A DNA stretch of 62,270 nucleotides, filler included. It is 10 parts of 10 records of this genome, joined end to end, with 100 filler letters (N's around TTAATTAATTAA, not from the genome) between each part and the next. Parts side by side here need not be neighbours in the genome. Positions count along the whole stretch, not along the records: positions 42,457 to 48,520 come from SRR7504441_14755; 9 more parts are not named here. One strand, 5' to 3'. The position numbers and the translations under genes were made by a program. Every line of letters starts with the position of its first letter. Positions within the stretch are counted from its first letter, which is position 1. The notes under the pieces were generated by a model. That model had not been told where the DNA came from, ran no database searches, and saw only the letters and a list, made by a program, of their open reading frames with translations. This document shows positions 9,946-59,399 of the stretch, piece after piece.

Positions 9946-9967
9946 CCAAGAATTCATGATAATTATT

Positions 9968-9993
9968 ATATTGTATTGTATTGTATTGTATTG
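9968..9993. repeat. (TATTG)n microsatellite in convergent intergenic region
   Basis: About five tandem TATTG units. Confidence 0.8.
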
Positions 9994-10022
9994 TTTGCTT
10001 TAAATAATAGTGCACTGGTCAA

Positions 10023-22306: not shown

Positions 22307-22468
22307 TGTGCTCGCCGAACAACACTGCTCGTCCTGAACCTCTTGCGCCACCACCTGGATCGATTTCTAATATTGGAGCCGCCGCCACTACTGTAAGTGC
22401 CGATCTCGCCAGGCGTCCGGCTGTTCCGCGCCTGTGTGGAGCGAAAGGACAGTGGGGTGACCTCCGTG

Positions 22469-26128: not shown

Positions 26129-26354
26129 GCTGAAGTGCCTTTCGCCCGTCGAGACCCGGCCGTGTTCGAGCACTAGGGTCCCTACCTACTTGGTAACTAT
26201 TTTTCAACCAGTGTGAGTTAACTCGAAAGAGCTCTCAAGCAAGACACTAGCTGTAAGCTTCTACTAAGCTTCTTTTAATGCGGTATTCAGTGTGACGGCT
26301 AGGATGCATAGAGACGGCAGCCATTGGCACTGCTCTTGATTGATCAATACCGCA

Positions 26355-26404
26355 GATGATGATAAGATGATGATAAGATGATGATAAATTAATGATAAGA
26401 TGAT
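26355..26404. repeat. Imperfect (GATGATGATAA)n tandem repeat
   Basis: Visible directly in sequence. Confidence 0.7.
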
Positions 26405-26508
26405 TCACGAGGAGCTGACTTGTAGAGAAGTTGTCAAACACAGCACAGTGTACGCGTGCAGAGCTCAAGAGAAGTTTCATGGCACAGACCCGAGATTAGC
26501 CCTCAGAA

Positions 26509-28938
26509 TTAGAGCTTGGAGGCGTCCTTGAAGGCTGCAGCTGGGTTGGCTTGCAGTTGGGGCTGATCCGAAGCGAAAATGGACGGCGTGTCAGGCTTGC
26601 CAAACTTCTTCTCGAGTTTGGCCAGATCCCAGTCTGTGACCTTGTCGTGGTGGCAAGGCTCGGAGCCCTCCCAGCAGGCGTTCCACGCAGCCCCAGGGGC
26701 ATCGACGCTGGCTGCTTGCATGGCCGCCCACATGCCTGGGGCCCAGGAGGATGCTTCGATCATCTCCTCCTTGAGTGGAGTGAACGGCTCTCCGGTCTCA
26801 CCTGCACAGCTCAACAGTCAGTTGTGCATCACCCAATCAGGCTACCGCGGCCAAAGAAGCGGCGGGAGCCTGCCCGCTCGAGCAGGATGTCCACCATCCG
26901 GGGAACGTTCATGTAGGTGTCGTAGTAAGTCTCGTCACCGTTGCCATAGACAGCGTGCTGCAGCCCAGCGAGGGGCTTGCTAGGGTTCTCAGAGGCTTGC
27001 TTGAGATGGAAGTAAAACTCCCAAAAGTTCTTTGGCGGATTGCCGTACATCGACGATGTGCAAACAACCAGGAACTTAGTTTGCTTCAGACTGTTGAAGT
27101 CGAACGAATTGCCCTCAATCGCCTCAGCTGGCGCACTCATGCCACACTCCTTGGGGAAGCATCCAAGAATCTCGGCAGAATCCCGCTTCGAGTCGCCCAT
27201 GAAAAAGGATCCATACACTACCGCAACATCGGTAGCCTCAGCCTTTGAGACCGGGGCCAGGCTGGGTGCAGCGGTCGCTGCTGGGGCGGCTGGTTTGGCA
27301 GCGGCTGATGGAGCCTTGAGCTTGGTAGTCACCTCCTCATCGAATTGAGTGATCTCGATCTTGTCGCCCAGCTGCTGCTGCTGCGATGGCGAGGTAGTCG
27401 TGATGACGATTGGGTCGGCGCCGTTGGTCTGTGGGATGGAGATGGTGGTCGTGATGCCCGAGCCGGCTTGAGCGACTGGGCGGGGCGACGCCATGTACTC
27501 GAGTGCGCTGGTGCCAGCAACTCTGCCCAGAATCACTGCCTCAGCAAGCCCAGAGCCGCCGAGTCTGTTGCGCCCGTGCACTCCGCCAGTGACCTCACCG
27601 GCGGCGTACAGGCCGGGCACTCCACGGCTGGAGGCCTCGTCTACACACTCTGCCTTGGGGCTGATGGCCAGACCGCCCATGGTGTAGTGCACGACTGGTG
27701 TGACCTGCGCAACGTAATATTCCTCGTCCATCTCGAACGGCGTGTTGTGGTAGTAGATCTTACCAAACGGGTCCTCGCCGCCAGCTGCCGCGTATTTGTT
27801 GTACTGGTCCAGAGAAGCCTTGAGCTTCTCTTCAGGGATGCCCATCTCTTTGGCCACTCCGGCGGCGTTCTTGAAGTGCTTCATCACCCGACGAGAGGTG
27901 TAGTGCTTGCAGTGCCAGTCCATCTGCGAGGCGGCCTTGGAGTTCATGAGCAGCCTGTACGGAGGCTTGTTGTGGTCCCACATCCGGCCGGTCACGTAGT
28001 CCCTCTTGCCGATGTCGTTGGCGAACCGGTTGCCTTCGCAATCGACCAGGATCCCACCTTCGCCTCGCAAGGCCTCGGCTGCCAGCAGCTTGGTCTTGTT
28101 ATCCGGATCGCCAGGATTGACGAGTCCCGTAGGGTGCACTTGCACGTGCTGCAGCCCGACGGCTTGCGCACCAATGTCGAGCGCAACAGAGATACCCTCG
28201 CCTTGAGAATGATCGCCGTTGGTGGTGGGCAGCTCGCACAGATCTGGCCTGACTCGGTGCAGCATTGAGCCCGGGACTGCGCCCCCGGCCCCGTAGCCAC
28301 CGGTCGCCAAGACCACTGCATCGGCCATCAGCTCCTGCATCTGGCCGTCGGCGTCTTGGTACTTGATGCCGATCACCCGTCCGGCCTGGTCCTTGATCAG
28401 CTCCTTGAGCACGCTGTTGATCAGAAGGTCGCAGTTCTGGCTGCTGTCTGCCAGCTGCTCGTATTTCTTCATCAGAGCCGAGGTGATCTCCATCCCAGGG
28501 AACTTGCCGCCGCTCTTGGTGCGGTGGGTGCGTTGGTGCGAGTGGCCGCCCATCCGGCTGACCACATCCAGCGCGAGCCCGAACTCGTCCTGGAGCCATG
28601 CGATTGCCCCACTCGAGTTTTGAACGAACATGCTGGCGATCGGGTAGGGCTCGGGCATGGGACCGGTCTTCTTGCCGGTGGCGGACCGGACCATGTCTTC
28701 GAGGAAGGTCGTGTCGGTGATCCCCATGCTGGCCTGGGTGCGGCTGGGCGCCCCATTGATCCCAGAGGTGGCCTTGGTCGAGTTGCCCCCGAGGAAAGGA
28801 TTCCGCTCCACCAGCGTCACTTGGGCGCCGCCCTGCGTTGCTGTCAATTAGGGAGGCGCCGGCCCGACCCACCTGAAGCATGGTGTGCGCCGCCGAGAGC
28901 CCCGAGAGTCCGCCGCCGATCACGATTGCAGAAGGCAT
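26509..28938 (-). CDS. Soluble flavin fumarate reductase (Osm1/Frd1-like) fused to a flavodoxin-like domain, C-terminal SKL; 2 introns
   Basis: GGGLSGL, GGNSTKATSGIN, VQVHPTG, EALRGEGG, HYTMGG, HGRNRLGG; then VVYGS...VCTSSMYGNPP...AVYGNGDETY; ends DASKL*. Confidence 0.88.
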
Positions 28939-29382
28939 GCTGTCCGTGGCGGTGCTGAACGGGTTACGAGGATTGCTGGTCCCCCGAGTTCGTTAACTTT
29001 CCGTTGGCAACGTGGGATCCCCACGTTTTTTTATTGTTTTCTGCGAGTCTGTTTATTCTACTGCGTACGTATTTTGATTGTGTCTTCAGAACTGTGCNNN
29101 NNNNNNNNNNNNNNNNNNNNNNNNNNNNNNNNNNNNNNNNNTTAATTAATTAANNNNNNNNNNNNNNNNNNNNNNNNNNNNNNNNNNNNNNNNNNNNTAA
29201 AGCAATTAACTGCTATCAAGTTTAGTGTCTGTCTGATGAGCTCTGTCGCGCCACACGTGAGACGACGACAACAACAACACCAGCGGTGGCCGGGGTTCGG
29301 TCCGAAGTGCAGCTCGTGGTTCCGGGGCAAGGCGGCGGCGGCGGCGGCGGCGGCGGCAGGTGCACGCGGGGGGCTTGCGGGT

Positions 29383-32165
29383 ATGTTCGTCCCGGGGGCG
29401 GCGGCGGCGGTGGAGGAGGAGGAGGACCTCTCGTGCCGCTCACCGCCCGAGAAGAACCGGCGGCTGGAGCACGGGCGCGAGAACCGGCGGTCTAGCAGCC
29501 AGGACCCGCCGGGCGGGATGGATCTCTCGGAGGAGCAAGCGCACGAGTGGGTGGATCAGCAGATGGAGGACCAGATGGGCAGCATAGAGGACGATCGCGA
29601 GTACTTTGTGCTCAGTAGCAGGTGGTGGCAGCTGTGGCAGCAGTCCGGCTCCCCGGGCCCGATCGACAACACAGTCCTGCTCCAGGAGCCGCACGAGGCC
29701 GGGCAGCTCAACCGGCAGATGCAGGCCGAGCTGCATTACAAGATCGTCCCGCTCTCGGTCTGGGAGTTCCTGGCAGCCCGCTACGGCGGTGGACCGGCCC
29801 TGCCGCGCCGGGCAATCACCGAGAGCCACAGCATCTTTTGCAAGGTGGAGGTGCACCTGCAGAGGCTGCTGGTGCGGGCCGGCCACTCCAGCGCTGAGCC
29901 GGGCGCAGGTGCACAAGTCGTCTGCGCCCGACGAGGAGCCGGCGCTGGTGCACCTGAGCAAGCGGGCCAGCGTGCAAGAGTGCCTCAACCAGTGCGCTGA
30001 GGCGGTCGGGCTGGATCCTGCGGGCAGCCTCAGGTTTTGGGATTACTACCAGAAGAAAAAGTACACCCGGCTGGAGGAGAACCTGGAGCAGACGATAGAC
30101 GATGCCAAGCTGTATGACGAGCAGGATGTGTTATTCGAGGAGCCGTTGGCGGACGGCAGCTTTGCGCCGGATCTAGAGGAAGTCCCGGAATCGTCCGGCT
30201 GGTGGAACAGCAGCCCGACTCTGGGGAGCAGCTTGGCCGACAAGACTGATCAGATACAGTACGGAGAAGGCCCGATCGTGCGAGGCGTGACTGGGCTGCA
30301 GAACCTTGGCAACACCTGCTTCATGAACTCTGCGCTCTCGTGCCTGTTCAATGTGCCGCCGCTGGTCAAGAGCTTTGGGTCGGGAGAGTTCGAGCTAGAG
30401 CTGAACGAACTCAACCCGCTGGGGTGCAAAGGCGAGATGGCAAAAGCCTTTGGGTCGCTGGTAAGGCTCTGGCCTTGGTCCAGGGCTGACTGTGTGGCTC
30501 GTGCAGGTGCAGAAAGTGTGGCAGGACTGCGCGGCTGTGGTGGTCCCCAGGGCATTCAAGTGGACACTAGGGCAGTACGCGCCGCAGTTCCAGGGGTACG
30601 AACAGCACGACTCGCAGGAGCTGCTCTACTTCCTGCTCGATGGGCTACACGAGGACTTGAATAGAGTGGTCGACAAGCCAGCCACAGAGAAGCTGGTGGT
30701 CGGCAGCGAAGGCGACCCGGAGGAGGTTGCGGCCGAGGCCTGGAAGCGGCACAAGCTTCGGAATGACTCACTCATTGTTGACCACTTGCAAGGCCAGTAC
30801 AAGTCGACGATCGTTTGCCCCAAATGTCAGAGGGTCTCCATCACTTTTGACCCTTACATGTGTCTCACTGTCCCGCTTGTGGCTGAGGAGCGCAAAGCCA
30901 TCGATCTGGTGCTGGTGCTGAGGGATCAGAGTCAACACTCACTCTCACTCAGTCTGGAGAAGGCCGCCACGATTGCAGGCCTGCTCGAGGAAGTGTGCAG
31001 CAAGATGGCTCCTAGTCCGATGGATCCGTCTCAGCTGGTGGTCACAGAGATCTATCATAGCAAGCTGCACAAGGTGTTTTTGACCACAGATGAAGTGGCA
31101 GATGATATCAGCGCTGGCGATCAGATAGTAGTTTATCAAGTAGATGCAGCTGCAATCTTTGCCCCTTCACGGAGATATTGGGGCGACGACGCTTATGAAC
31201 CTGGACAGCACTGTGGTGTGGTGCTAACTCGGACGAGGCAAGCCAGCAGCATGTATGACCAGCGTCCTTTTGGTGTGCCGGGTCTGCTGCTGTTTGGATT
31301 GCCTGGAACAAACGCTGGGTTTCATGCCGCTGTGCGCGAGTATCTCGAGCTTGAGGATGAAGAAGAGCTCACGCTGTTCTATGAGTCCTGGAGAGTGAAC
31401 GACCGCGAGTATGTCCTAGACGACGACCAGCCTTTTGACACCAAGCGGGAGCATGTGGTGAAACTGAGTGTACTAAGCGTCGAGGAGAGCGCTGAAAGCT
31501 CTTGTGCGAGCCCTGCAGCCCCGGAGGCGGCCCAGTCCACTGATGTGAAGAATCTGTACGACTGCTTGCAGCTGGCGAGCGAACCAGAGCAGCTCACATC
31601 CGACAACGCGTTCTACTGTGGCGAGTGCAAGGAGCATGTGGAGGCCACCAAGCAACTGCAAGTGTGGAGCTTGCCCAATGTGCTTGTGGTACACCTGAAG
31701 CGGTTCTCCTACACCAAGTGGTCCAGGGATAAACTAGAAGAGCTTGTGGATTTTCCATTGAATGGACTGGACATGTCCCAGTACTGCCTATCCCAGCTGG
31801 AGGACAAGGAAGATGCCGTCTATGACTGTATCGGCGTCTCGTGCCATCATGGTGGGCTGTACGGAGGCCACTACACTGCATATGTGCGATCTATGATTGA
31901 TGGCAAGTGGTACGAAGTGGATGATAGCCACACCTCGTCTGTGGCTGATGAGCGTCAGCTCAAGACATCTGCCGCGTATCTCCTTGTCTATGCTAAACAG
32001 AGCTTGTTAGAAAAGCGCGATCTAATGGTCCCTGACCTCGAGCCAGTATCATCACGAGCTGACCGACAGCTGATCGATAATTTCGCAAGGGAACCGGACA
32101 CCGGGGAATTCACATCTGTGTTTCAGGGGGTTGAAGAGGCTTCTACAATGGACAGCCCCCTTTAA
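29383..32165 (+). CDS. Ubiquitin-specific protease, USP4/11/15-like (DUSP-UBL-UCH); 2 introns; start uncertain
   Basis: PGPIDN (DUSP), GLQNLGNTCFMNS, QHDSQE, HLKRF, HHGGLYGGHYTAY, AAYLLVY. Confidence 0.9.
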
Positions 32166-35466: not shown

Positions 35467-35681
35467 GATTTTAAGCCAGTTTAATGCGTGAATAAAACCC
35501 AGCTATACCAGCCCATTGGATATGATAAACAATGATAAAGCCCTGCCCAAAAACTAGTTCCGCATCAGGGAGCGGGTGTGANNNNNNNNNNNNNNNNNNN
35601 NNNNNNNNNNNNNNNNNNNNNNNNNTTAATTAATTAANNNNNNNNNNNNNNNNNNNNNNNNNNNNNNNNNNNNNNNNNNNN

Positions 35682-38859: not shown

Positions 38860-40323
38860 ATGCCAGCGCCACTCAAGGTCTTGTTGACCCTGCTCGCGGC
38901 AGTCCTTCCGCCCGCCGCCAGCCGGATCTGCTCGCAGCAGTTCAGCGCCCACGCCCACGGAGCGGCCGGTGACGGGCTGACGGTGGACACTGATGCCATC
39001 CAGCGGGCGCTGGACGCGGCAGCCGGGGCCGCCCCGGCCTGTGCGGTGCTCCGAGGAGGTGTGTTCGTCTCGGGCACGCTCCGCCTGCCGGCCCGGGTCA
39101 CGCTGTACATAGACAGCACCGCCGTGCTCAAAGCCTCGCTGGACGCCGCGGACTTCCAACGCGACTCTGCCGACTGGCCGGGGCAAGCTGTACTCGTGTC
39201 AGGCAGCTTCGCCGACGGAGCTGCGGTGGCCGGCGGCGGGGCGATCGACGGGCAGGCGCCAATGTTCGTTACATCGCTCGACGGACCGAGCGACCAGCTC
39301 AGATTTGGAGTGGACGATGTGGCGTATCCGGGCATTGATCGGGTGCGGCTGGTCGAGTTCAAACACAGCAAGTCAGTGAGTGTACGGGACGTCACTCTAC
39401 AAGACAGCACTGGATTCCACCTGCATTTCCTCAACTGCAGCGGGGTGCTAGTGGACGGCGTGACCGTAAATGGCGATTTGCGATGGCCGAACAATGATGG
39501 GATCGATGTGACTTCTTGCAACGACACGACCATCCGGAATTGTTTCGTCCAGACAGGCGACGACGCCTTCTCGCCCAAGACATGGCAGGGATACGGCCCG
39601 CTGCACAACCTGACGATCGAGAATTGCCGTTTCAGGGCTCGCAGCGGCGGGATCCACTTTGGGGCTTCGGCATGGTACGACTATGTGAACGTACGCATCA
39701 ACAATGTCGTGGTGATCGATGCGCACAGCGGGCTGCTGGCCCAGGTCCGCGGCCCGGGCTCAATCCGCAACCTGACAGTGACCAACTTTCTTGTCTCCAA
39801 GGCGCTGTTCAATGCTCCATGCAAGCCTTGGATGGGGAATGCAAACCCGATTGCAATCTCTGCAGACCGCTGGTGCGGAGGGCCAGCGCCGTGCGACAAG
39901 CCGGGCACAATCACTGGACTGGTATTTGAGAACGTGACCGCTCAAGCGGAGAACGGTATCTTCATCAGCGGCCGCGCCGGGGGTGTGAGCCACTTGCAAA
40001 TGAAGAGCATCCAACTCGTGCTGCAGCAGCGTCCGCCTAACAACGGCTCGTTCGGACCATGCCCAACTCGTCAATACTGGCCTACTTCTGACCCACCCGG
40101 CTGGTACAACGAGACTGATCTAAGTGTATCGGGCGTGTTTGTGGAGCACGCTACCGACGTTCTGTTTGACGGGTTGAGCGTTAGCTTCGTGGGCTCGCCC
40201 AAGCCCGGGAATGACTTTGGCGAGTGCCTCGCAATAGACGAGCGTACCACCCGAAGTGTGACTGTGGCTCCGGGGACACTGCGTTGTCTTCGGGGTGGGG
40301 GTGCCAAACAACGGCTATTTTGA
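38860..40323 (+). CDS. Secreted GH28 polygalacturonase-like hydrolase
   Basis: Signal peptide, GAAGDGLTVDTDAIQRALD, GGGAIDGQA, NNDGID, TGDDA. Confidence 0.85.
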   Translation: MPAPLKVLLTLLAAVLPPAASRICSQQFSAHAHGAAGDGLTVDTDAIQRALDAAAGAAPACAVLRGGVFVSGTLRLPARVTLYIDSTAVLKASLDAADFQRDSADWPGQAVLVSGSFADGAAVAGGGAIDGQAPMFVTSLDGPSDQLRFGVDDVAYPGIDRVRLVEFKHSKSVSVRDVTLQDSTGFHLHFLNCSGVLVDGVTVNGDLRWPNNDGIDVTSCNDTTIRNCFVQTGDDAFSPKTWQGYGPLHNLTIENCRFRARSGGIHFGASAWYDYVNVRINNVVVIDAHSGLLAQVRGPGSIRNLTVTNFLVSKALFNAPCKPWMGNANPIAISADRWCGGPAPCDKPGTITGLVFENVTAQAENGIFISGRAGGVSHLQMKSIQLVLQQRPPNNGSFGPCPTRQYWPTSDPPGWYNETDLSVSGVFVEHATDVLFDGLSVSFVGSPKPGNDFGECLAIDERTTRSVTVAPGTLRCLRGGGAKQRLF

Positions 40324-42329: not shown

Positions 42330-42456
42330 GTTCAACCTGTGAAAGCCAACCCACGCNNNNNNNNNNNNNNNNNNNNNNNNNNNNNNNNNNNNNNNNNNNN
42401 TTAATTAATTAANNNNNNNNNNNNNNNNNNNNNNNNNNNNNNNNNNNNNNNNNNNN

Positions 42457-45400
42457 CCCCCCCCGGGCCCAGGCCGAGAAGGCCGCGCGGGTGGGTCCGG
42501 CCGTTGGTTTGTCCGTTGACGCCGGAGGGCAGCCGCCGCTGCAGACCATCGGACAATCGTCGCCGCTCAAGCAGAGCCGGGCGCTGCTGGCCGAGAAGAA
42601 GGTAACGGACTGTGCTATAAATAGAATGACAACGGACGGCAGGCGCTGGATATGCAGCTGCGAGAGCGCGAGAGCTCCGACCGAGCGCTGAGCCGGTGAT
42701 TTATGCTGATTTATGATTTCTCACGGGTCGGCCAGCGAGCGCGATCGGCTCCAGAAGTCGTTCAACGAGCTGGAAGAGGTGGCGGTTGGGATTTAACGGC
42801 GTTCCAACGGAAACGGCCAGGTTTGGGCGCCGATCGGAGATTTCAAGTACGCGGCGTGTGAAATCGTCTCGGTTGATCCTCATCAAATCGTGCTCATCCG
42901 GAAGGATACCAAGGCGGCTATTAATAGATGTCCGTTGGGAGTAACGGAATAACGGCAGGAGTGCCTGGAGCGCAGCCTGGATGAGCTGCTGCCGGAGGAT
43001 CCGGGCGCGCGCGAGCCACCTGCAAACCTGGTCGAACTGCACAGGATTCAGGAGACACAGCTGCTCGAGGCCACCCGCTACAAGGCGGCCGTTGGGATAT
43101 ATATATAGCCATATGACCGTTGGGACAGGCCAATCAGAACCAATTCTCCACGCTTTGTGGCCCGAACGCGATCGCTCTCTGCAAAGGAGGTGACAGAGAG
43201 GGCGCCATTATTATAATTATTGTTATGATCACCACCCGCTCTAAATTAACGGAATACGGGCAGGCCCGGGGCTGTTGGACGATACAGACACCCACCCGAG
43301 CCGGCTGGAAGCTTTGCTCGACCTTGTCAGGCAGACCAGACGGCGGGCCGTGACGGACGGCCGGGTAGTAGCATCACGGCAGGAGCGGATTCTAACGGAA
43401 TTTCCAGGTGAGGACGTTCGTTTGTTTGGGGGTCTCGGGCTCTGGGAAGAGCCTGGCGTCGCGGGCGATCACACAGGTGTGCATAGTTGTTTGATTTATT
43501 GATTTATTGATTAATCCGGTGGTCAGGCGATAATCCAGCCCGACCCCGCCACCGGCCACCTTCCCAACGATCGAGTGCTTACTCTGAGCGCCGCCATGAC
43601 CACTGTGCTCGATGCCTTCGGGTGCGATTATGACTGATTTATTGATTATTAATTCATCCGGGCAGCTGCTGTGCAAGCGGGCAGACACGTAACTCTTCAA
43701 GGTTCGGCGCTTTGTATGAGCTACAACTATCCAAGTGCCGCGCGCCCGACCCGGCGTCGCCCCCAGACGAGAAATGGCTGATGGACGGCTCCGAGGTGTG
43801 ACTGATTTTAATTCAATTTCGATTTAATCCGGTGGCAGGTGTCTGGAATCTCTCTAAGCACTTTCGGGCTGGAGACACACACGGTGATTCGAATCAATCC
43901 CCAACCGCTTTTTTAACGGCAACGGCAGGTTGTGGAGCAGCTGCCTGGTCAGAGCAACTTCAACGTCTTTTACCTGCTCTGCCACTCGTGTCAAGAGGAA
44001 GGTGGCCCGATCTGGCTTAATAAGCGAATTAATCCGCCGGCCCAGGCGCCGGGCTAGAAGCTCTAAAGCTCCGAGCTTCGGCCAACTTTAACTTCCTCAA
44101 AAACGCCGCCCCGCCCGGCAAACCGACCGAGGCAGTGTCGCAGTTCATCGCGCTCCAGGCCAGCTGGGTGGTCGGGTGGGATTGAAGGTTGGAGCAGGGA
44201 GCGATGGAGGAGATGCTGTTCGACGTGGTCGAAATCGAGGTCCCAACCGCATTTCCAACGGCTTTTAACGGAATTTCAGGCCGCCTGGTGTGTGCTCGCG
44301 GCCATTCTGCACCTGGGGCAACTCGAGTTCGGTGCGCTGTGCTAAAAATAGCCGGAAATTCCGAACTGAATCCCAACTGACAGTGCTCGGGACCGACGGC
44401 GTGACAGCCCAGCCGATCTCCACTGTCAAGACAGGTGCTTCTGTGCTATAAATAGCCGGATTCTAACTGCATCCAACGGACAGTGGCCATGCTGCTGAAG
44501 ATTGACGCGGTCAAGGCCCACACCGAGCTGTGCTCGCTCGGAGACAAGTGGGACAAGGTATCCCAACGGCTTTTAACGGCATTTACAACGGCATTCAGGT
44601 GATGGGTGCCCGGTACGCGCGTCCGGAGCTGGCGGCGTGCGCCAGCCGCGACGCGCTGTGCCGCATTCTGTACCAGCGGCTGTTCAACTTCATCGTGCAG
44701 CGAGTGAACGACACGCTGTGCGCCGAGCAATCGGACGGTTTTCTAACGGCATTTAACGACATCTAACGGCATTCAGGTATCCTGGCGGTGCTGGATCCTC
44801 CGGGCGGGCTGGCCCAGAGCGGAGCGGGTGGGCTCGGGTCGATGCAGGTGGTTTATTTATAGATTTAATTCTAATTGAATCTGTGCAGCTGCTGCTGAGG
44901 AACTTCTCACACGAGCGAATGCAGCAGCACTTTTGTCAGCAGGCAACCGACACTTAACTGCATTTTAACGGCATTGCTAAGCAGTGTAAGGTGTAGTTTG
45001 CCGCCATTGCTGAATCCCCAACCGCCTTGATTAACTGCTTTCGGTTGCAGATGTTCGTGCTACAGAAGAATCGGATGAAGGAAGAGGGCATCGTCTCCCT
45101 CAACGATCTCGAGTTCCCAGACAACGACCAGGCGGCTCGATCTAAAAATAGAACAATCTCAACGGTTTCCGTTGCCAGGTGCTCGAACTGCTCGAGAGAA
45201 GGAGCAGCGGAATGCTCGGGATAATCGAAGAGGTCGAGGGCCTTCCGCAGGTGCAACAATCTATAAATAACCCAGTCCCAACGGACTTTTGTGCAGTCGC
45301 GGCCAGAGGCGCTGTTCCAGAAGCTTCAATCTCTGTTCACAGGGCACCCGAACTTTGTGTCCAGCCAGCCGGAGCGTGGCACTCGGCTGTGCACGGTCGA

Positions 45401-48400
45401 ACATTCGTTCGGCGCTTGCACGTACAGCGTCAGCTCATTCCTGGACATTGAAGGCGACGACTCGTTCACTCCGGCACTCAAGCTGTTAGAGGGCACCCAG
45501 TCGGAGCTGCTGAATTCGCTATTTCCGGCGCTGGTGCAGTTGTAGTGTTAACACTGGCTGATTAATCCCAACCGCAGACTCTCGGGGACGATTCGTATGG
45601 GCTGGCAAGCTCCATCTCCAAAGCCAGTTATCTCAAGTCACAGCTCGCTTCGGTCAAGCAGCTGGTCGGGTGACTGTTAAGCGCACCTGCCCGATTAGGA
45701 AACAGCTGTTAACTAACTGCTCTTAACACAGGCCTTCGCTCAGCATCTTTGTGCACTGCCTCGCTACAACTGCCGACGGCGAAGGCCCCCGCCAGCCAGA
45801 AGCGCGATATCCTTTCGACCCGGTGAGTGCAGCGCCGGCTAGTTGTGGCTGAGCATGGCGCAGGCGCACGTGCAACAGCAGCTGCGGCATGGGGCGGTGC
45901 TGGCTTCGCTCCAGTGGCAGCGGTTTGGTTATCCGATCTCGATGCCGGTCGACGACTTCTGGGATCGGTAAATACCAATAATAATAATAATTGCTAGTAA
46001 TAATAAGAACATAAGCAATGCCTGTAAGCCTATACATAGCATAGCATAGCTCTCTCCAGGATCTGGTACGGACACTGAACTCAAAACGTCTGTTGTGTAC
46101 AGTTACTACCATCTAGGCAACATGCGCCCGCTGTCTGAGACCCACCCTCTACCCAACGGGAGCAAGAAAGAAGCCGTTGCTGTCATCCTGGGCAAATGCC
46201 CCTTCGACCAGCACCACTGGAGGATCGGCACCCACTCTGTCTTCCTTAGACCGAAACCTCTCCATGTTCTGGAGGAGCTTCGGAAGGTTAACAACAGTTA
46301 GTGTCACACTAATCCCCAACCGCAGGCCATCGAGTGGAGCGCCGCCTCCTGCATCGCCGCCCGGATCAAGAAGCAGCGCATGTGACTGTCACAGCTTAAC
46401 ACTGTTTAATCAATCCCAACCGACAGGTACCGGTTCTTCCACGCGCGCAAGCAGGCTTTGCGGATGCTCCAGGTTTCCGTTAAAAGCCGTTAGAAAGCCG
46501 GCGAGCTGTGTGGCAGCCGTTTGTGCGGGGGGTGCTCACCAGGCAGCTGTACCAACGGGCGCTCGAAGGCGCATTTATGACTTTCTCCGACCGAGAATCG
46601 TCCAGTAACTGCTCGTACAGTTGTATAGTAGTGTACAGTGTATGGTGTAAGCACTTGGGTGGCACTAGGAGCCCTAGCCCTAGCCCTGGGCCTCTAGCAA
46701 GCGAGGCTGGTGCAGCATACAACCACGCAAAGCGGCTGGAGTCCGACAACGAGGCTCGTGAGCTGGCGGCGATGGCAGCTGAGGAGGAGCAATCCAAGGC
46801 ACCCGGGCGGTGCTATTGTTAGATCAGCCCGGGGTGCAGGTGGCCTGGGTGAAGATCGAAGCCGCGGAGTTACAGGAAGCGGCAAATATCGTGGCAATGT
46901 ACGATGCCAAGGTATTAATCCTCGCTAATAATAATAATAATACTCGTGGTGATTGTGCGGCGGTGTGTGACGTGGGTGGTGCAGGTGGAAGGTGAGGCGC
47001 TCAACGCTGTCTGGCGGCTGGAGCGGCTCACTGATGACATGGACGAGAACTCGCGCTGCTACTTCACGGTATGATAAACAGCTATAGCTAGTACGGGGGC
47101 TGAGTGCGGCTCAGGACCCTGCAGTGGAGCCGATGACAGTAGCGCCAGGATGCGAAGTGTACGGCCCTGCTGACCATACACACCAGCATCCGTGACAAAC
47201 ACCAAACCGATAGTCAACTGACACGGCCGCAGATACTCAGATTTCCACGAGATTGCAGCGCTGGCTGTGGACGCTGTGCGGTCGATTACAACTGACGTGA
47301 CCGAACGGGTGATCACGAGGGCGGAGGCGGAGCTCGAAAGGTTAACAGCGCATTCCCGATTAGGAAGGTGACGCGTGTTAACTCAGGACGCACCGGGAGG
47401 AGAACACGGCTGCGGCGACCATCCAGCACATGGAGAATGAGGACAAGTACATCAAGGCGGTCGAGGCGGCGCTCGCGGCCCGTGTGGTGTTAACGCCACC
47501 TTCCCGATTGGGCGTGATCGGTTAACAGGTGCTCACGCCCGGCCAAGAGCTTAACATGATGATTCAAGCCGAGTACGGGATGCGATTCAGGCAGCCTCCT
47601 GTGCTATTTATAGACAGTTCCAACGGCATTTGCAGGCAGCTGATCGAGGGCAACCGGAAGGCGATGGAGGAGATGGAGAAGCTCCGGCCTCCGGCGGTAT
47701 GTTAACACGTGTTCCCGATTAGGAAGGTAACACTGACGCAGGACGAGATCGCGTTCGAGCCGGATGCCGTTGACGGGCACAAGACGGTTAGGTTGAATGG
47801 TTATAACGGACTGAGTAGCTGCAGGCGGGCGGAGACTTGTTTGAAATGCTCAAGAAGGAGTGCGACAAGGCGATCGACATGGTATGTTAACAGCCGCTTC
47901 CTAATTAGGAAGGTAACACCGGCCGGCAGGTGGCTAGTGAGGCCGAGATCCACAAGAATCAGGAGATCAACCAAGCATCCAAAGAGCTCGGGCAGCGGCA
48001 GGTGTTAAGAGCACCTTCCTAATCCGGAAGTGGTGTTAAGCTATGTCACGGCAGAGCGGGCTGATTGTGGACGAGATTGTGGACGCGATTGTCCAACTGG
48101 CCGAGCAGCAGGTGTTAAGAGCACCTTCCTAATTAGGAAGCTGACACTTAACAGGGCGAATATAACAAAATGGTCAAGAAATCCATCGAAATCAAAGAAC
48201 GTCGAAAGCGCGAGATCGACACCCTCAAAACAGCCCAGACGCTCCAGATGCAGGTGTTAACAGCGCTTGCCTAATCAGGAAGGTAACCCGTTAACACAGG
48301 AGGAGATGGTCCAGCAAGACAAAGACCGGGCCCAGCGGCGCGCCGACCGTCGCGCTCGGCAGGTAGTGTCGCCAGCCCTGAGCTGTGTGGTGGCTGAGCG

Positions 48401-48520
48401 GAGCACAGGAGGCTGAGGCAGCCAAGGCGGCCAAGAAGGCGGCCGACAAGGAGGCAGCTCGGGCGGCCAAGGCTGCCGCGGATGCCGAGGAGGAGGAGGA
48501 AGTGAAGGTGTCGGTTGGGG
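42457..48520 (+). CDS. Divergent myosin (SH3-like N-terminus, motor domain, IQ motifs, helical tail), both ends truncated, ~45 introns
   Basis: Manual splicing gives one open frame with GVSGSGKS (P-loop), LDAFG...NSSRFG (switch I), SNFNVFYLL, LAAILHLG, RDALCRILYQRLF, NFSHERMQQHF, FGYP, IGTHSVFLR, LQPFVRGVLTR (IQ). Confidence 0.88.
42602..42642 (+). repeat. Motif intron, family B/C (TGTGCTATAAATAG + AACGG)
   Basis: 41-nt GT-AG intron restoring frame; shares core with 44332-44383, 44435-44483, 45132-45178, 45251-45296, 47591-47635. Confidence 0.65.
43477..43838 (+). repeat. Three adjacent family D introns (TGATTT...TAATCC/CATCC-GG): 43477-43526, 43622-43665, 43796-43838; also 42696-42735
   Basis: Shared TGATTT(A/T) repeats and ATCCGG(TGG)..CAG 3' ends. 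Confidence 0.65.
44240..44776 (+). repeat. Family C introns built of tandem YAACGGCWTT units: 44240-44279, 44558-44598, 44738-44776
   Basis: e.g. GTATCCCAACGGCTTTTAACGGCATTTACAACGGCATTCAG; a reverse-complement copy lies in intron 46473-46516. Confidence 0.7.
44332..44483 (+). repeat. Two highly similar adjacent family B introns (44332-44383, 44435-44483)
   Basis: Both read GTGC..CTGTGCTAWAAATAGCCGGA..TTC..AACTG.ATCC.AAC.GACAG. Confidence 0.75.
45670..45731 (+). mobile_element. Introner-like family A intron (GTTAA...CCCGATTAGGAA...TTAAC.CAG)
   Basis: 62-nt intron sharing core and ends with the 47341-48299 cluster. Mobility is inferred. Confidence 0.5.
47341..48299 (+). mobile_element. Cluster of seven introner-like family A introns: 47341-47386, 47487-47528, 47697-47741, 47882-47929, 48002-48054, 48112-48154, 48254-48299
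   Basis: Consensus GT(A/G)(T)GTTAA(C/G)-N6-8-TTCCYRATTAGGAAG-N-(GT)TAAC-CAG; quasi-palindromic. 48002 and 48112 share their first 22 nt exactly. Confidence 0.6.
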
Positions 48521-48620
48521 NNNNNNNNNNNNNNNNNNNNNNNNNNNNNNNNNNNNNNNNNNNNTTAATTAATTAANNNNNNNNNNNNNNNNNNNNNNNN
48601 NNNNNNNNNNNNNNNNNNNN

Positions 48621-51949: not shown

Positions 51950-53830
51950 TTGCCTCATCATCAAGTCATGCGGCACATGCTGAGCCAGCTGAGGCATTCG
52001 AGAAGTCATGGCATAGTGGGTGCGTCCGTTGGCAGTTGTTGAGCGAGTATCGCCTCGATCCCGGCTTTGAGTTTTTCGATCGCCTCCGGAGCTGTAGATT
52101 CTGTCCTCCTGGGCTCAGCGGTTGGCTGGCCGCTCGGCACCGGCTGCAGTGCCAAACATCTCAAGCAGCTCAAGCCTGCTCTGCTGCGCCCGGAATAGCC
52201 GCTCGAGCCTCTCGCGCACTGAGCCGAGCTCTTGCTCTGCCGGGGCTCAGCCGGGCTGCAGAGGCACCCACCCAGCCCACTGCTCACGCTGTGCATCCCG
52301 TTGGTCTGTGGGCGCTCGGTCTCGATCACGGCTCGGGTGCAAGCGATTGTCTCATCCAGCTGGGAGTGCTTGCTCAGCAGGATGGCCTGCCGCCCACTAG
52401 CAGGCCGCCCACAGCACCGGTCCGCACCACGGTCTTGCTGTCCGCCTCGATTCCCTTCTCACACCCACTCACAAAGCTCTCCTCCGCACTGCTCCGTCGT
52501 GCAGCCAGCTGCTGCCTGCAAGCCGGGTCACACCCGGCGGTGGCGGCGCTCACATGAGCTCGAGCCTGCTGGCCTTGGCGGCCTCGCTGAGCAACCTGTT
52601 GAGCTCGGCCGCGGCTTGGGCGCAGTCGAGTCCGGCTTGCCAGCCGAGCAGTTGAGCCTGCTCGGCTGCCTGCCCAGCGTACAGCGGCTCGGCCACTTCC
52701 GGCCACGACTGGTGCTCCTTCACCCTCTCGGCGTGCAGCTCGGCCAGCCCGGCGTCCAGGCTCCGGCTCTGCTCCGGCCCATCGGCCGGCTGGTCGAGCA
52801 GCCGCCTCTCCTTCTCGAGCAGCTCAAGCAGCTTGGCCACCCGCGTCCGCTGCGCAGAGAGCAACTCGCTGCCAAACTGCTCGCGCCCGGTGGCAGCGGC
52901 ATCGAGCTCTTTGGCCAGCTGCTGCCGGATCCCTTCCAGCGTGGTCATCCCGGCCTCCAGTCGCGCCTCTGCCCCGGGCAGCCCCGGCAGCAGCTCGTCC
53001 AGTCGGGATATCAGATCCGAAGCCTGTCCTGCTAGGCTGGCTGAGAGTGCGCCCTGCTCGAGCAGCAGCTCCACCGCCGGGCCCGGGCTGGACCGGACCA
53101 CCACCGCCGCCCGGTCCGCCAGGTGCTCCAGCGCCTGCTCTGCCCTGAGCGCCGCCTTCTCCAGAGCGCGCTGCCCCGCTGGCACCGCCACTGCGCCGAC
53201 CATGCTTGCAGTCAGCCGCTGGATGGCCTTGCGCGTGTCTTGCCGGGCTTCGGGAAGCTGGTGGAGCAGTCCGGCCAGCTCCATCAGCCGCTCAGCCACC
53301 CGGTCCCCGTCCAGCCCGGCGGGTGCCTCCCGCTCTAGCCGGTTGGCCAGCGCCTCCCGCTCCAGCCCAGCCAACTCGGCGCCCAGCGCAGCCAGGCCCT
53401 CCTCTGTGGGAACAGGCGGCCGGTCAAGCGCAGCGGAGACCACTTGTTCCAGGCAGTCCGGCGCCTGGGACTCCGGCTGGGCCGGCGGGACCGGCTGGGT
53501 CGGCTCGGGCGGCGGCTCGACGTATCCATAGTCTGCGCCCCCGGCGGCCAGACTGGCCTTCTGGATAAGATCGGCCTTCTCGATGAGGCCGGCGCACGAG
53601 GCTCCGTTGCGGGCGCAGAACTCGCGCAGCTGGCGGACGGTCATCTCGTTGAAGGGCCGCGGCCGGCGGGAAGACTCGTAGAAAGCGTTCACGCTGCTCT
53701 CGATGGAGCCGTGGGCCGCCAACAGGTCCTTGGCCTGGCCCAGTGTGCAGCTGCACAGACCGCTCACCTCTGAGGCCTCCGCAGACCCGGCTGCAGTAGC
53801 AGTTGAGGGCACCTGACGCTGTGAAACCAT
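51950..53830 (-). CDS. UBA-like + coiled-coil hypothetical protein (3' end uncertain)
   Basis: QAKDLLAAHGSIESSVNAFY (UBA-like), MTVRQLREFC...GLIEKADLI, long helical region. Confidence 0.55.
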
Positions 53831-53944
53831 TTCGTCAGCCGGCGCTGCCCCAGCCGCACTTTGAGTCAAAAAGTCACTCCTGCTCGAATAAAATCGCGCC
53901 AAAGTGCGCCGAGACCAGGGGTTGCCAATAGCAAGCCTCTCGGC

Positions 53945-54763
53945 ATGGAGGACTCCTCGGCCGAGTGCTACGCCGCTCCGCTGTCCACCGCAGCACACAC
54001 CGGTGCCGGCAGCGCTGGATCGGCAGCGCGGGCCTCGCCGGATAGGTGGGCGCTGGCCGCGGGGCTCACTCCGGTGCTGGTGTTTGCCGTCACCTACCCG
54101 ATCGCCTGGGCCGGCGGCCACCTGAGCTGGGCCGGTGGCCTCACGCTCTCCCAGTCGATCGCGCTCCCCCCCGAGCGATTCATAGGCAGCTTTGGGCTGG
54201 CGGCTGCCTGTGGACTGGTGATGGTGGCGGCGGCACTCCGGCTGCTGTTCTGCCTGCAGCTGCTCGGGCCGGATTGCCCGGTGCACCACAAGTGCAGCTT
54301 CGGACTGGCCTGCCTCGGCACCGCCGGTACTCTGGGGGTTGCGTCGGTCCAGTGCGGGGGCGGCACGCCACAGTGGCACGCCCAGGTGCGCCCGGCGCCG
54401 GCCTGGGCCCACCGCTCGGGGCAGACCGACTATCAGTGCACGATCCACTTTGTAGCGGCTTACATGTGCTTTGTGGCCTTCTGCGTGTACGTGCTGCACC
54501 AGACTTTTGTGGTGGAGCGGCGGCTGGCTGCCTCGCTCGACGGCTACCGGACGCCGCGGTGGAAGCAGGGGCTGGCACTGCTGCCGGTGCTCTGCTTGGT
54601 GATGATGATGAGCGGGGTGCCGCGGGGCGACCTGTGGGAAGTGGCCATGATCCTGCTCGCGCTGGTCTGGCTGGCCAGCCTTTACGGCACATTCGGCGGG
54701 ATGCAGCTCGAGCTCAAGTTCGTTCCGTGCCTGACAGCTCACCGACCCGACCTTGCGCTATAA
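53945..54763 (+). CDS. Frag1/DRAM/Sfk1 (TMEM150-like) membrane protein
   Basis: LSQSIALPPERFIGSFGL, GTLGVASVQ, IHFVAAYMCF, WE in last TM. Confidence 0.65.
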   Translation: MEDSSAECYAAPLSTAAHTGAGSAGSAARASPDRWALAAGLTPVLVFAVTYPIAWAGGHLSWAGGLTLSQSIALPPERFIGSFGLAAACGLVMVAAALRLLFCLQLLGPDCPVHHKCSFGLACLGTAGTLGVASVQCGGGTPQWHAQVRPAPAWAHRSGQTDYQCTIHFVAAYMCFVAFCVYVLHQTFVVERRLAASLDGYRTPRWKQGLALLPVLCLVMMMSGVPRGDLWEVAMILLALVWLASLYGTFGGMQLELKFVPCLTAHRPDLAL

Positions 54764-55343
54764 CTAGCATATGCGCAGCACTGGCAAGCCACTCACGTTA
54801 ACCCCCCTGGGCTCCCGGACTCCTATGCAATAATAACTGCTTTTAACTAGTATCAAGCCCTAGGCATTACATGATTGTACGCCTGATGTGTAGTGGGTAG
54901 TGCCCACACCCTCCTNNNNNNNNNNNNNNNNNNNNNNNNNNNNNNNNNNNNNNNNNNNNTTAATTAATTAANNNNNNNNNNNNNNNNNNNNNNNNNNNNN
55001 NNNNNNNNNNNNNNNGCCAAGGCCCATGCAACGGAACTTCTCCTCACAAGTATTATAATTGATACGTATTGCTGTACAATAAAAGATTGGAATTGATTCG
55101 AATGCCGGGAGTATACTCCGGGCGCCGGCCTGATCCGATCCGTGTGGACTTATTCATTATTGAAGTACGTGTCATTTTATTCGCACGCTTCATACTCATA
55201 ATCACAACACCATCGTCGGGATGTAATAATCATACCGTACGTTCTTGTACTATACCTGCACATCAGATCACGTACGTGATGTGCAGTGTAACGATCCATG
55301 CCCGCGAGCATCCAACCTAGCCATAACCGACCAGCAATAGTCC

Positions 55344-57406: not shown

Positions 57407-58797
57407 ATGCGGCTGTGGCTAGCCGGACTGGCCCTGACAGGACTGGCCCTGGCCGGGCTCCCGCGCCTCGAGTGCCCCGCCGGGTGCCGGGAGATCTTCA
57501 CGATCGGTGACTTGCACGCCGACGCCCAATGCGCCCGCCGATGGCTGGAGCGCACCGGGCTGGTCCACCTAGATCCGTTATCAGGCGAGCCGACCTGGAC
57601 CGGCGGGAACAGTAGCGGGATCGTGCTGATGGGCGACTATATTGACAAGGGCTTGGCCGGCCGGTCAGTCCTCGAGCTGATCAGAGGGGTCCACCGGGCG
57701 GCCCCGCCGGGGAGCGTGCTGCCTCTGCTGGGCAAGTGAGCGCCCGGGGCCGGCAGCGGGTGAGCCTGGGGCAGCCACGACTTCTACACCCTGCTGGACA
57801 CGTACCTGAAGCCGGGGACTGACCGCCCGATGGGGGTGGAAGTCTCCGAATATTTGCATGCGTTCACCCAGCCGCTCGAGATGTTGAATTGGGCCACAAA
57901 TCAGACCGAGCAGGACCTGCGCGAGGTGATCCCGGCGGTGTACCGGGCGTTGGAGTGGGCGTACGATCGAGGGGCCGAGCGGTCTTTGACTATGTCTCGA
58001 GGGCCACGCAGCCTGCTGGCTGTGGCGCCCGAATTTGCTGCGAACCAGTCGCTGCGGCGGCTTGTGGGTGAGCGCCTGGCGAGCTTGCGGGGCGAGATGG
58101 GCGCGGCGCTGGAGCGGTCTGGGCTGGGCGGCTGGCTCCGGGGGCTGCCGGTGCTGGCGCTGGCGGGAGACGCGCTGGTGGTTCACGGAGGTGATTGCCT
58201 TATTAGGAAAGATGTTAAGCTATGCCATTGCCTTATTCGGACGGGGCAGGGCTGCCGCCCGGCGAGCTGGCCGGCGAGCCGTTAGAGGAGACGTTGCAGC
58301 GGCGGAGCAATAGCGGGCTGTGGGCCGGCTGGGCCGAGGGCGCTGTCGAACCTCTTAGCCTAGGAGGATTCCGGGAGCTGGCTGGGGATGCCGCAGGGCT
58401 TGTCCCGAAGCTGGTGACGCACCGGGGCTATTTTGGGCCGGGCGGGTGCGCCCAAGTGAACCGTGTCGTCGAGAGGCTTGCCGGTGTAGGCGTGAGGCGA
58501 GTGGTCGTCGGCCACACTCCCACTGATACAGACACAGTGCAGCTCCGTTGCGGAGGTCGGCTCGTGGCAACCGACGCGGCGCTTAGCCGTTACTTTAGGG
58601 CGCACGGTAACCGTTACTGCCATCCGGATCGGAAGCCAACAGGGTGGTTCCGAGGGCTTTTGAGCCGGCGACGAGCCTGCGAGCAGAGGGTTAGCCCAGA
58701 GTGCGGAGGCCAGATCGCGAGGATGCACCGGGCGGGCGAGGACGGGCCGTGGACGGTAGAGCGGCTGGAGCTAGAGCGTGGGTCTGACGAGGTTTGA
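57407..58797 (+). CDS. Secreted calcineurin-like metallophosphoesterase (Shewanella-like phosphatase type); introns 57736-57774, 58191-58249
   Basis: GDLHAD, MGDYIDKG, LGNHD (spliced), VHGG, VVGHTP. Confidence 0.82.
58191..58249 (+). mobile_element. Family A-related intron in another contig
   Basis: TTGCCTTATTAGGAAA core plus TGTTAAGCTATG shared with myosin intron 48002-48054. Confidence 0.5.
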
Positions 58798-59399
58798 TAC
58801 AAGGAGCCCTACTGATACAAGGCTACTGTAGTGTAAGCTTAGTTGTTTATGGGTTTATTGAATAGTTAGTCAGTACTACTGACATTGTTTCATTGTGCAT
58901 GTTGGGGTCATAACCTGTCGATCAGCCTGGCCCGCACCACTTCCCCGTCGCTCAGCCACTTTTGCTGCCAGCTCAGCACCTGCCCCCCCCCCCCCCCCCC
59001 CCCCCCNNNNNNNNNNNNNNNNNNNNNNNNNNNNNNNNNNNNNNNNNNNNTTAATTAATTAANNNNNNNNNNNNNNNNNNNNNNNNNNNNNNNNNNNNNN
59101 NNNNNNCGGAGGTCGGCGAGTAAGCGGGAATGACGCCGAGTTCTGATGCGCTCCTATGGCGGTTAGTAGGCGGTCAGAGGTCAGATGAAGAGGCTTAGTG
59201 ATCGGATAGTGATCGGATTGATAGTTATGTTGATTTCAACTAAACTTCGACCTCGATAATCTATGACAATTTCTACTCAAGAGAAGCTGGCAACCAGCAA
59301 CTACCAAAATCACACCAGCCGCATCGACCAAAGCTCGCGATCAGAACTCGAGATCGTTCGGATCAAGCCCACTGGCAGTCAGCCCACTGGCAGCTAGCT

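Follow-up and report, generated by a model that had tools for sequence, protein, structure and literature searches.

The origin of new spliceosomal introns is a long-standing question, for which the documented route is the spread of dispersed, transposon-like introners; these introners, or introner elements, have reportedly been found in many lineages, Micromonas and Aureococcus among them. For reverse splicing, a proposal now decades old, there is to our knowledge little natural evidence, and pairs of similar introns have reportedly been described within single genes of Oikopleura. Among the described systems, the closest analogues of the introns reported here are the same-gene intron duplications of fungi and the sister introns of the Hypoxylaceae. 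In fungi, 82 same-gene duplications were found in 24 species, with at most 16 per species and near-identical copies; half of the cases had unduplicated exons, with possible transposition within one transcript, and the other half were segmental (Collemare 2013). The symmetrical sister (stw)introns of the Hypoxylaceae carry inverted repeats of 45–55 nt, occur in many genes and integrate without flanking duplications, arguing against classical DNA transposition (Fekete 2021). The present locus is a partial myosin gene that fills one contig, at positions 42457–48520, of a 62,270-nt stretch of DNA analyzed as a whole (the window), and it offers a compact test case, with about 30 related introns of 40–50 nt, relatives that are neighbors in the gene, no target-site duplication (TSD) and unrelated exons.

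These introns resembled the fungal duplications in that similar introns were confined to one gene (here within the 62-kb window) and exons were not duplicated, but differed in number, with about 30 related introns in four families at 65–90% identity. As in the Hypoxylaceae, proliferating introns with self-folding terminal inverted repeats and seamless integration were found, although the family concerned here (family A) measured only 42–62 nt, with 8-nt arms and a central palindrome of 14–16 nt. Repeated introns with pairing ends are also known as the hairpin introner elements of Amoebophrya, in which inverted repeats of 8–20 nt join the 5′ and 3′ ends and which have mostly non-canonical splice sites, direct repeats of 3–5 nt and a genome-wide distribution (Farhat 2021); in contrast, borders here were GT/GC..AG and no direct repeats were seen. 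In the literature on introners, same-gene intron duplication and reverse splicing, no description of mini-intron family clusters limited to one gene was found.

The window consists of ten contigs joined by spacers of the form N44-TTAATTAATTAA-N44 (6637–6736, 12178–12277, 16544–16643, 29098–29197, 35582–35681, 42357–42456, 48521–48620, 54916–55015, and 59007–59106); because the contigs are separate, arguments from neighborhood across these points are invalid. The contig with the myosin gene is present in its entirety (6064 nt). Its gene model was obtained by codon-aware dynamic programming, in which only GT/GC..AG introns were permitted, followed by correction of six borders against orthologue alignments, while models with a minimum number or a minimum length of introns were rejected as giving biologically wrong structures. 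Removal of 44 introns left a single frame without stops, 1280 codons long and on the + strand, which was colinear with the orthologues P0156, P0160, and P0164 and identical to P0156 at 390 of 627 residues. An earlier note on this DNA had read one myosin frame split by about 45 AT-richer mini-introns within about 6 kb, and the model agrees with it: there were 44 introns (45 if the 108-nt intron 20 in fact comprises a 48-nt and a 60-nt intron lying end to end, as it may), of which 38 measured 36–54 nt (median of all, 45 nt; the rest 62, 73, 74, 74, 108, and 135 nt), with a GC content of 0.477 vs. 0.617 in the exons. Borders were GT-AG in 37 introns and GC-AG in seven, three of the latter (starting at 42914, 43085, and 45132) having a GCGGCY donor hexamer after AAG or CAG. 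The coding sequence was interrupted 11.5 times per kb. Internal exons averaged 83 nt and were more even than under random placement, with a coefficient of variation in length of 0.47, a value as low being reached in 0.7% of simulations even with a minimum exon of 27 nt imposed. An Rfam scan of the entire window gave no matches. The two longest introns, 20 and 26, each resembled two intron-like units, abutting in intron 20 (48 and 60 nt) and 6 nt apart (GATCTG) in intron 26, and orthologues had no extra residues at either site; in both, an intron may have been inserted at or beside an older one.

A junction was scored as supported when the alignment to at least one uninterrupted orthologue was free of gaps over six residues on either side and at least 6 of these 12 residues had positive scores. 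By this test, 33 of the 44 junctions passed against uninterrupted orthologue open reading frames (ORFs); of the first 29, extending through the motor and IQ-like region, 27 passed, and of the 15 in the poorly conserved tail, 6. Intron retention would be harmful, judging from an in-frame stop in 30 introns and a frame shift in 12 of the remaining 14. The 3′ end was CAG in 41 of the 44 introns, and 27 of the 44 had YAAC at a distance of 2–22 nt from that end, compared to 7.7 ± 2.4 in shuffled sequences; YAAC..CAG is probably the branch site signal. Insertion sites followed a protosplice context, AG/G (the slash marking the junction), with AG upstream in 26 of 44 cases, G downstream in 30 and phase 0 in 30, and six of the ten AGGT tetramers in the mRNA were exon junctions. 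Given the 33 gap-free junctions, the stops and shifts on retention, the CAG ends and the enrichment of YAAC, the interruptions are almost certainly spliceosomal introns.

Similarity among the introns went far beyond that expected from composition, which had been set beforehand as the test of the proposed families. Different introns had 103 distinct 10-mers in common (300 dinucleotide shuffles: 2.2 ± 1.9, maximum 11) and 51 12-mers (0.1 in shuffles), and a local-alignment score of at least 24 was reached by 50 of 946 intron pairs vs. 0 of 400 shuffled pairs. At that threshold, 31 of the 44 introns fell into clusters of 14, 8, 5, 2, and 2, leaving 13 singletons; the top pairs were identical at 39 of 44, 43 of 48 and 33 of 39 aligned positions, and a repeat finder and Tandem Repeats Finder recovered the same intron repeats. 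Family A (n = 8) reads GT(AT)GTTAAS, then TTCCYRATTAGGAAG, then GTTAAC(AC)AG, forming a foldback, GTGTTAAC..TTCCYRATTAGGAAG..GTTAACAC, in which the 5′ splice site base-pairs, through the arms, with the 3′ region and encloses the palindromic core, with a folding z-score below -2 in three of the eight members. Family B is defined by the TGTGCTATAAATAG module, family C by two or three units of 10–12 nt with YAACGG, and family D by TGATTTAT repeats together with TAATCCGG; inverted repeats of at least 6 nt were not seen in these three families (mean fold z -0.16, +0.21, and -0.89, respectively). About 31–34 introns belong to a few families and about 10 are like ordinary GC-rich mini-introns; introns 13, 25, 31, and 44 (GC 0.64–0.66) look like the ordinary kind.

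The motifs by which the earlier note had defined its families fared unequally. Those of families A and B were far above chance, with seven matches of TTCCYRATYRGGAA (0.07 expected) and three of TGTGCTAWAAATAG (0 expected), all in this contig and on the + strand. The YAACGG units of family C are present, but this family and the common 3′ end are probably in large part the YAAC..CAG splice signal itself. The 3′-end motif AATCCCMAACCG, put forward as a mark common to the families, did not exceed chance by itself, its three matches being equalled by 3 of 100 shuffles. A further module, CTAWWWATAG, was observed at 42611–42624, 44338–44351, 44442–44455, and 47600–47613, with similar sequence in introns 4, 5, 19, 21, and 22; it supplies TAA and TAG stops in two frames and resembles a TATA box, and it might serve as a stop cassette, as a site bound by protein or as neither.

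The similarity of the introns ended at the exon borders. Exon–exon scores were at background (6 of 990 pairs at or above 24, with about 4 predicted from a null fraction of 0.004), and in family A the 30-nt intron flanks were unrelated, which rules out duplication of exon–intron units; similarity limited by the borders, with exons not duplicated, is the signature of intron copying. Related introns also lay close together. With splice-site ends trimmed and a partner defined by a score of at least 22, 34 of the 44 introns had a partner, and the mean distance to the best partner was 6.8 introns vs. 15.0 after permutation, a value this low being reached in none of 5000 permutations. In 10 of 34 cases, compared to 3.1 expected, the best partner was no more than two introns away. 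Family D was confined to 42696–44888, and seven of the eight family A members were at 47341–48299. That related introns are neighbors in the gene points to short-range copying rather than genome-wide transposition. No TSD was detected beyond AG/G, since junction repeats averaged 3.11 nt vs. 2.99 nt for random pairing, and direct repeats of at least 5 nt flanked six introns vs. 7.0 by random pairing of 5′ and 3′ sides, a fixed duplication of AG or G being indistinguishable from the splice consensus.

Copies could not be detected elsewhere in the window. Profiles of the families recovered every member within the contig, and the best nhmmer match on either strand of the other nine contigs (∼56 kb) had an E-value of 0.11. 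Searches of these contigs with each intron (blastn-short) reached 26.3 bits, with shuffled maxima of 24.3–32.2 and therefore no excess, and the 11-mers in common with them were at chance (62 vs. about 59 expected). The earlier note had contrasted the myosin gene with other genes of the window, and this contrast stands for a gene of ∼2.4 kb on contig 4, which encodes a flavocytochrome c/fumarate-reductase-like protein with a fused flavodoxin domain, 75% identical to proteins from metatranscriptomes, and has two introns placed by homology, of 40 nt (∼0.68 GC) and 44 nt (0.52 GC), with CAAC/TGAC motifs near the 3′ end; the other “ordinary” introns in the window are ab initio calls. From the lengths of these two introns, tiny introns would be normal for the host organism, and the myosin gene appears special in intron number, lower GC and family structure. 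GC at third codon positions (GC3) of the exons was equal in the two genes (0.773 in the myosin and 0.767 in the flavocytochrome gene), hence the lower GC of the myosin contig is due to introns alone. The contigs of the window plausibly come from one genome.

Relatives of the gene gave a hint of when the introns were gained. In P0150 and P0155, from European Nucleotide Archive (ENA) contigs of ∼4 kb, one ORF of 364–371 amino acids (aa) spans the positions of introns 11–22, starting at the codon homologous to the first after intron 10 and ending in the intron that follows LQG. If these contigs are genomic, the position of intron 10 would be common to them and twelve introns of the window would be lacking. 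The orthologue contig L001 is continuous through the positions of introns 1–22 and then has, at 2188–2344, a pyrimidine-rich unspliced intron after LQG (AAG/GTGCGT), 13 codons before the site of intron 23, while a second orthologue contig, L002, resembles a full-length mRNA with untranslated ends; both are probably transcripts. L001 also showed a frameshift near 300–335 relative to the N-terminal exon of the window. At homologous sites, AG upstream of the junction was rarer in the orthologue mRNAs (10 of 22 and 12 of 42) than here (16 of 22 and 26 of 42). Together with the ORFs of P0150 and P0155, this hints at lineage-specific gain.

The best-supported reading of these results is an introner-like outcome reached by proliferation within the same gene, with no sign as yet of a dispersed transposon. 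It would have been a burst of intron gain in which a few founder mini-introns were repeatedly copied over short distances inside the myosin gene, a reading to which we assign a probability of roughly 0.55. We infer that the similarity of the introns reflects copying and that the gains are lineage-specific. The copies would have entered AG/G sites of the same gene seamlessly and without TSD. Two mechanisms were rated about equal. In one, an excised intron would reverse-splice into its own pre-mRNA, with subsequent reverse transcription and recombination; in the other, a non-autonomous foldback DNA element would hop locally, which is plausible mainly for family A. A weaker third option would be templated repair of DNA breaks, copying nearby intron sequence.

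Several points weigh against this reading. Eleven of the 44 junctions, mostly in the unconserved tail, have no orthologue support, with introns 30, 33, 34, 37, and 39 uncertain, and splicing was deduced from orthologues and reading frame under a model limited to GT/GC..AG. Part of the similarity is signal and not ancestry (YAAC in 27 and CAG in 41 of the 44 introns); the members of family C in particular contain internal repeats and reach a median pairwise identity of only 0.36. Copy identities of 65–90% indicate that the copies would not be very recent, and neither a reverse transcriptase or transposase nor any autonomous element was seen. One such gene is in view and 56 kb is a small sample, so the gene-local pattern could be a keyhole effect, and the other nine contigs may not all be from one genome. 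That relatives lack introns is read from where the ORFs of protein records begin and end, and the transcript-like nature of L001 and L002 means that they have no bearing on the relatives' introns.

Introners are described as dispersed over many genes in 5 to >2000 copies per genome, and many show TSDs that supply a splice site (Verhelst 2013; Gozashti 2022). That the myosin introns are true introners of this kind, i.e., dispersed non-autonomous transposons of ∼45 nt, similar to miniature inverted-repeat transposable elements and spread genome-wide, with a heavily hit gene viewed through a 6-kb keyhole, is an explanation which we consider unlikely. Introners too form border-to-border intron families with unrelated exons, lower GC than exons (Gozashti 2022) and some GC donors, and the short terminal inverted repeats and central palindrome of family A, with fold z below -2 in three of its eight members, fit such elements. 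Published family medians extend from 30 to 654 nt (Gozashti 2022); with ordinary introns of ∼40–44 nt in this DNA as well, the description of the present introns as unusually small is weak. Pipelines based on BLAST would presumably miss 45-nt families at ∼75% identity. The proposal of introner-like elements in the earlier note is retained as far as families extending from border to border and unrelated exons are concerned. Of dispersal the window gave no sign: no significant copy, genic or intergenic, was present on either strand of the other nine contigs, and the family A pattern had no match in viral contigs, its three matches in prokaryote genomes being rejected as AT-rich bacterial sequence that fits chance. 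The TSDs of many introners have no counterpart here beyond the consensus, three of the four families lack inverted repeats, with fold z near zero, and relatives adjoin in the gene, which would not be expected of genome-wide transposition unless hopping were local. If the families nevertheless prove to be dispersed, they would merely be one more, very small, introner family.

A more specific form of gene-local copying is self-propagating amplification by reverse splicing in cis into neighboring AG/G sites, followed by reverse transcription and recombination, which would have driven one gene of an intron-poor genome to ∼11.5 introns per kb; taken jointly, these propositions remain rather improbable in our view. 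If true, they would provide the clearest natural footprint yet of intron gain mediated by reverse splicing, and would point to mini-intron families as a class whose members are too short for the introner screens run with BLAST to date. Reverse splicing and dispersed introners make different predictions about orientation, about copies in other genes or between genes and about presence/absence polymorphism. Intron families as short as these are detectable by k-mer and profile methods, whereas genome-wide BLAST screens would probably miss them, and similar cases may lie undetected in further organisms whose introns are tiny.

The BOC1 introns of Mamiellophyceae are 40–65 bp long and many per gene in an otherwise intron-poor genome, below 43% GC, located in a low-GC chromosome region and without mutual similarity (Moreau 2012; Verhelst 2013). 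By analogy, the myosin introns might be old, small, AT-richer introns of a special compartment, alike through splice signals, low-complexity repeats and local homogenization, but this appears quite improbable. As in BOC1, where genes are split by many AT-rich introns and other genes have few, many small introns less GC-rich than exons, most of them GT-AG, were found here in one gene, with 44 introns vs. two in the flavocytochrome gene; the YAAC..CAG signal is widespread, and the position of intron 10 may be common to a relative. On the other hand, 42 of the 44 introns are below 75 nt yet only seven are below the 43% GC criterion of BOC1, and the exon GC3, equal to that of the other gene, argues against a low-GC compartment. 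BOC1 introns are described in those sources as singletons, whereas here modules of 12–16 nt that are not splice signals recur, as seen in the excess of common 12-mers. Ordinary introns here are tiny, unlike the published canonical introns of Mamiellophyceae, and no sequenced species, Mamiellophyceae included, was among the named matches to the myosin.

That the interruptions are not spliceosomal at all but sequences eliminated at the DNA level, a repeat assembly artefact or a decaying pseudogene is hardly credible, for although they are short, AT-richer and repetitive and their splicing is deduced from sequence alone, all 44 can be removed at GT/GC..AG borders to give a stop-free frame colinear with orthologues, they have the CAG end and the enriched branch-like motif, the exon borders follow the AG/G consensus, and a neighboring gene has like introns at positions defined by homology.

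The interrupted gene itself is a myosin of an orphan class, whose lineage has no named genome sequence. The Pfam Myosin_head profile (PF00063) was matched by two of the ten exons scanned, at 44599–44736 and 45297–45533 (E-values of 1e-5 and 1e-6); the matches were colinear (profile positions 328–359 and 457–529), each being below the gathering score by itself, and the domain is present in the orthologues P0152 and P0164. The protein is laid out as an N-terminal coiled coil, an SH3-like part (VWAPIGDF..), the motor, an IQ-like region and a coiled-coil tail, with the P-loop GVSGSGKS and switch I NSSRFG read from the model. A phmmer search with the longest exon returned five proteins among 1.84 billion representatives, of which three were true relatives, whose clusters hold the longer members P0156 (658 aa, on a 2344-nt contig), P0160 (1400 aa, on a 4376-nt contig), and P0164; a homologue search with a 79-aa exon, at a setting for longer proteins, gave no match. 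The assignment to an orphan class follows from the next-best named myosins, of classes V and XI, being only ∼26% identical to P0160. All members (the window myosin, P0150, P0152, P0156, P0160, and P0164) have the P-loop G(V/T)(S/T)GSGKS and the switch II region LD(P/I)PGG, which is LDPPGG in the window myosin. This P-loop and the LDPPGG sequence presumably depart from the usual myosin motifs, and the ATPase activity may be altered. A metagenome scan with peptide patterns based on the orthologues, which the sequence of the window itself does not fit, yielded L001 and L002 alone and thus retrieved no further contig of this organism. The introns of the gene and other features of the window are listed in Table 1.

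Table 1. Coordinates of the myosin gene, its introns and other features of the window. Supported, passed the orthologue junction test; all introns of the myosin gene are on the + strand.
Feature	Position	Strand	Description
Partial myosin gene, orphan class	42458–48520	+	Open at both contig ends; 1280 codons after removal of 44 introns
Intron 1	42602–42642	+	41 nt, GT-AG, family B (TGTGCTATAAATAG module and CAACGG); supported
Intron 2	42696–42735	+	40 nt, family D (TGATTTAT repeats); supported
Intron 3	42779–42820	+	42 nt, family C (YAACGG units); start placed by orthologues
Intron 4	42914–42958	+	45 nt, GC-AG (GCGGCT donor), CTATTAATAG and TAACGG; B/C-like in motifs only; supported
Intron 5	43085–43128	+	44 nt, GC-AG (GCGGCC donor), GTTGGGA module as in intron 3; below clustering threshold; supported
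Intron 6	43190–43263	+	74 nt, AT-rich core, TTAACGG near 3′ end; supported
Intron 7	43365–43407	+	43 nt, family C; directly precedes P-loop exon; supported
Intron 8	43477–43526	+	50 nt, family D (TTGATTTA x2.8, TAATCCGG); supported
Intron 9	43622–43665	+	44 nt, family D; closest to adjoining intron 8 (37/44 aligned); supported
Intron 10	43796–43838	+	43 nt, family D; not scored supported owing to nearby gap
Intron 11	43884–43928	+	45 nt, family C (AATCCCCAACCG, TAACGG, CAACGG); supported
Intron 12	44002–44045	+	44 nt, singleton; supported
Intron 13	44159–44197	+	39 nt, GC-AG, GC 0.64, ordinary-type singleton; placed by orthologue alignment
Intron 14	44240–44279	+	40 nt, family C; supported
Intron 15	44332–44383	+	52 nt, family B; matches adjoining intron 16 at 43 of 48 aligned positions; supported
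Intron 16	44435–44483	+	49 nt, family B; supported
Intron 17	44558–44598	+	41 nt, family C (about three CAACGGCATTT units); supported
Intron 18	44738–44776	+	39 nt, family C (TCTAACGGCA x3.1); 33/39 identical to adjoining intron 17; supported
Intron 19	44848–44888	+	41 nt, GC 0.27, family D, hairpin z -2.7; supported
Intron 20	44943–45050	+	108 nt, GC-AG, C-type modules; orthologues read QQ/MF across
Intron 20, putative halves	44943–44990, 44991–45050	+	48 nt and 60 nt; split read from sequence
Intron 21	45132–45178	+	47 nt, GC-AG (GCGGCT donor), CTAAAAATAG and CAACGG; supported, 12/12 positives
Intron 22	45251–45296	+	46 nt, CTATAAATAA and CCCAACGG modules; below clustering threshold; supported
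Intron 23	45534–45577	+	44 nt, family C subgroup (GTTAAC.., TTAATCCCAACCGCAG); supported
Intron 24	45670–45731	+	62 nt, family A outlier, sole A copy outside tail; not supported (gaps)
Intron 25	45823–45863	+	41 nt, GC 0.66, ordinary-type singleton (GTGAGT donor, CTGAG); supported
Intron 26	45968–46102	+	135 nt, AT-rich, AAT and CATAG microsatellites; pairs with intron 32; orthologues read FWDR/YY across
Intron 27	46287–46325	+	39 nt, family C subgroup (GTTAAC.., AATCCCCAACCGCAG); supported
Intron 28	46382–46426	+	45 nt, family C subgroup (AATCCCAACCGACAG); supported
Intron 29	46473–46516	+	44 nt, singleton (CCGTTAGAAAG x2.3); supported
Intron 30	46615–46668	+	54 nt, uncertain borders in an unconserved region; length divisible by three and free of in-frame stops; not supported
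Intron 31	46799–46839	+	41 nt, GC-AG, GC 0.66, strong hairpin z -4.3, singleton; supported
Intron 32	46912–46984	+	73 nt, TAA microsatellite; not supported
Intron 33	47069–47142	+	74 nt, singleton, borders uncertain; not supported
Intron 34	47192–47240	+	49 nt, singleton, borders uncertain; not supported
Intron 35	47341–47386	+	46 nt, family A foldback (GTTAAC..TTCCCGATTAGGAAG..GTTAAC), hairpin z -2.6; supported
Intron 36	47487–47528	+	42 nt, family A; not supported
Intron 37	47591–47635	+	45 nt, GC-AG, family B (TGTGCTATTTATAG, CCAACGG), motif-based call; not supported; may be retained rather than spliced (multiple of three, no in-frame stop)
Intron 38	47697–47741	+	45 nt, family A; matches intron 40 at 39 of 44 aligned positions; supported
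Intron 39	47769–47818	+	50 nt, singleton, borders uncertain (27-nt exon left); not supported
Intron 40	47882–47929	+	48 nt, family A; not supported
Intron 41	48002–48054	+	53 nt, family A; 92% over 37 nt to intron 42; supported
Intron 42	48112–48154	+	43 nt, family A near-perfect foldback, 8-bp GTGTTAAG/CTTAACAC arms, 16-nt central palindrome, z -4.1; not supported
Intron 43	48254–48299	+	46 nt, family A foldback, GTGTTAAC/GTTAACAC arms, z -3.4; supported
Intron 44	48363–48408	+	46 nt, GC 0.65, ordinary-type singleton (CTGAG); supported
Flavocytochrome c/fumarate-reductase-like gene fused to flavodoxin domain	26563–28938	-	Contig 4
Flavocytochrome gene, introns	28833–28872, 26802–26845		40 nt and 44 nt
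GH28 polygalacturonase-like ORF	38860–40323	+	Intron-poor long ORF
GNAT acetyltransferase-methyltransferase fusion	20623–22878	-	Intron-poor long ORF
UCH ubiquitin hydrolase	30492–32165	+	Intron-poor long ORF
SAP-domain protein	52550–54742	-	Intron-poor long ORF
Rejected candidate intron	58192–58250	+	59 nt, GT..AG

The remaining contigs carried several intron-poor long ORFs (Table 1); for the UCH ubiquitin hydrolase, the few labelled members of the nearest Atlas cluster were Oomycota, which serves as a lead only, as do the flavocytochromes of bacterial type that the Atlas gave for the flavocytochrome gene. A GT..AG candidate intron outside the myosin contig was partly like intron 41 but was rejected as not significant (nhmmer E-value of 0.64; blastn-short); it was AT-richer than its surroundings and had an internal direct repeat, ATTGCCTTATT, its likeness to intron 41 consisting of TGTTAAGCTATG. 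Outside the long ORFs, AT-rich stretches of 85–407 nt were present at 9935–10037, 26334–26418, and 12587–12993, which were unlike the mini-introns and contained simple repeats (TGTAT x5 and GATGATAA repeats).

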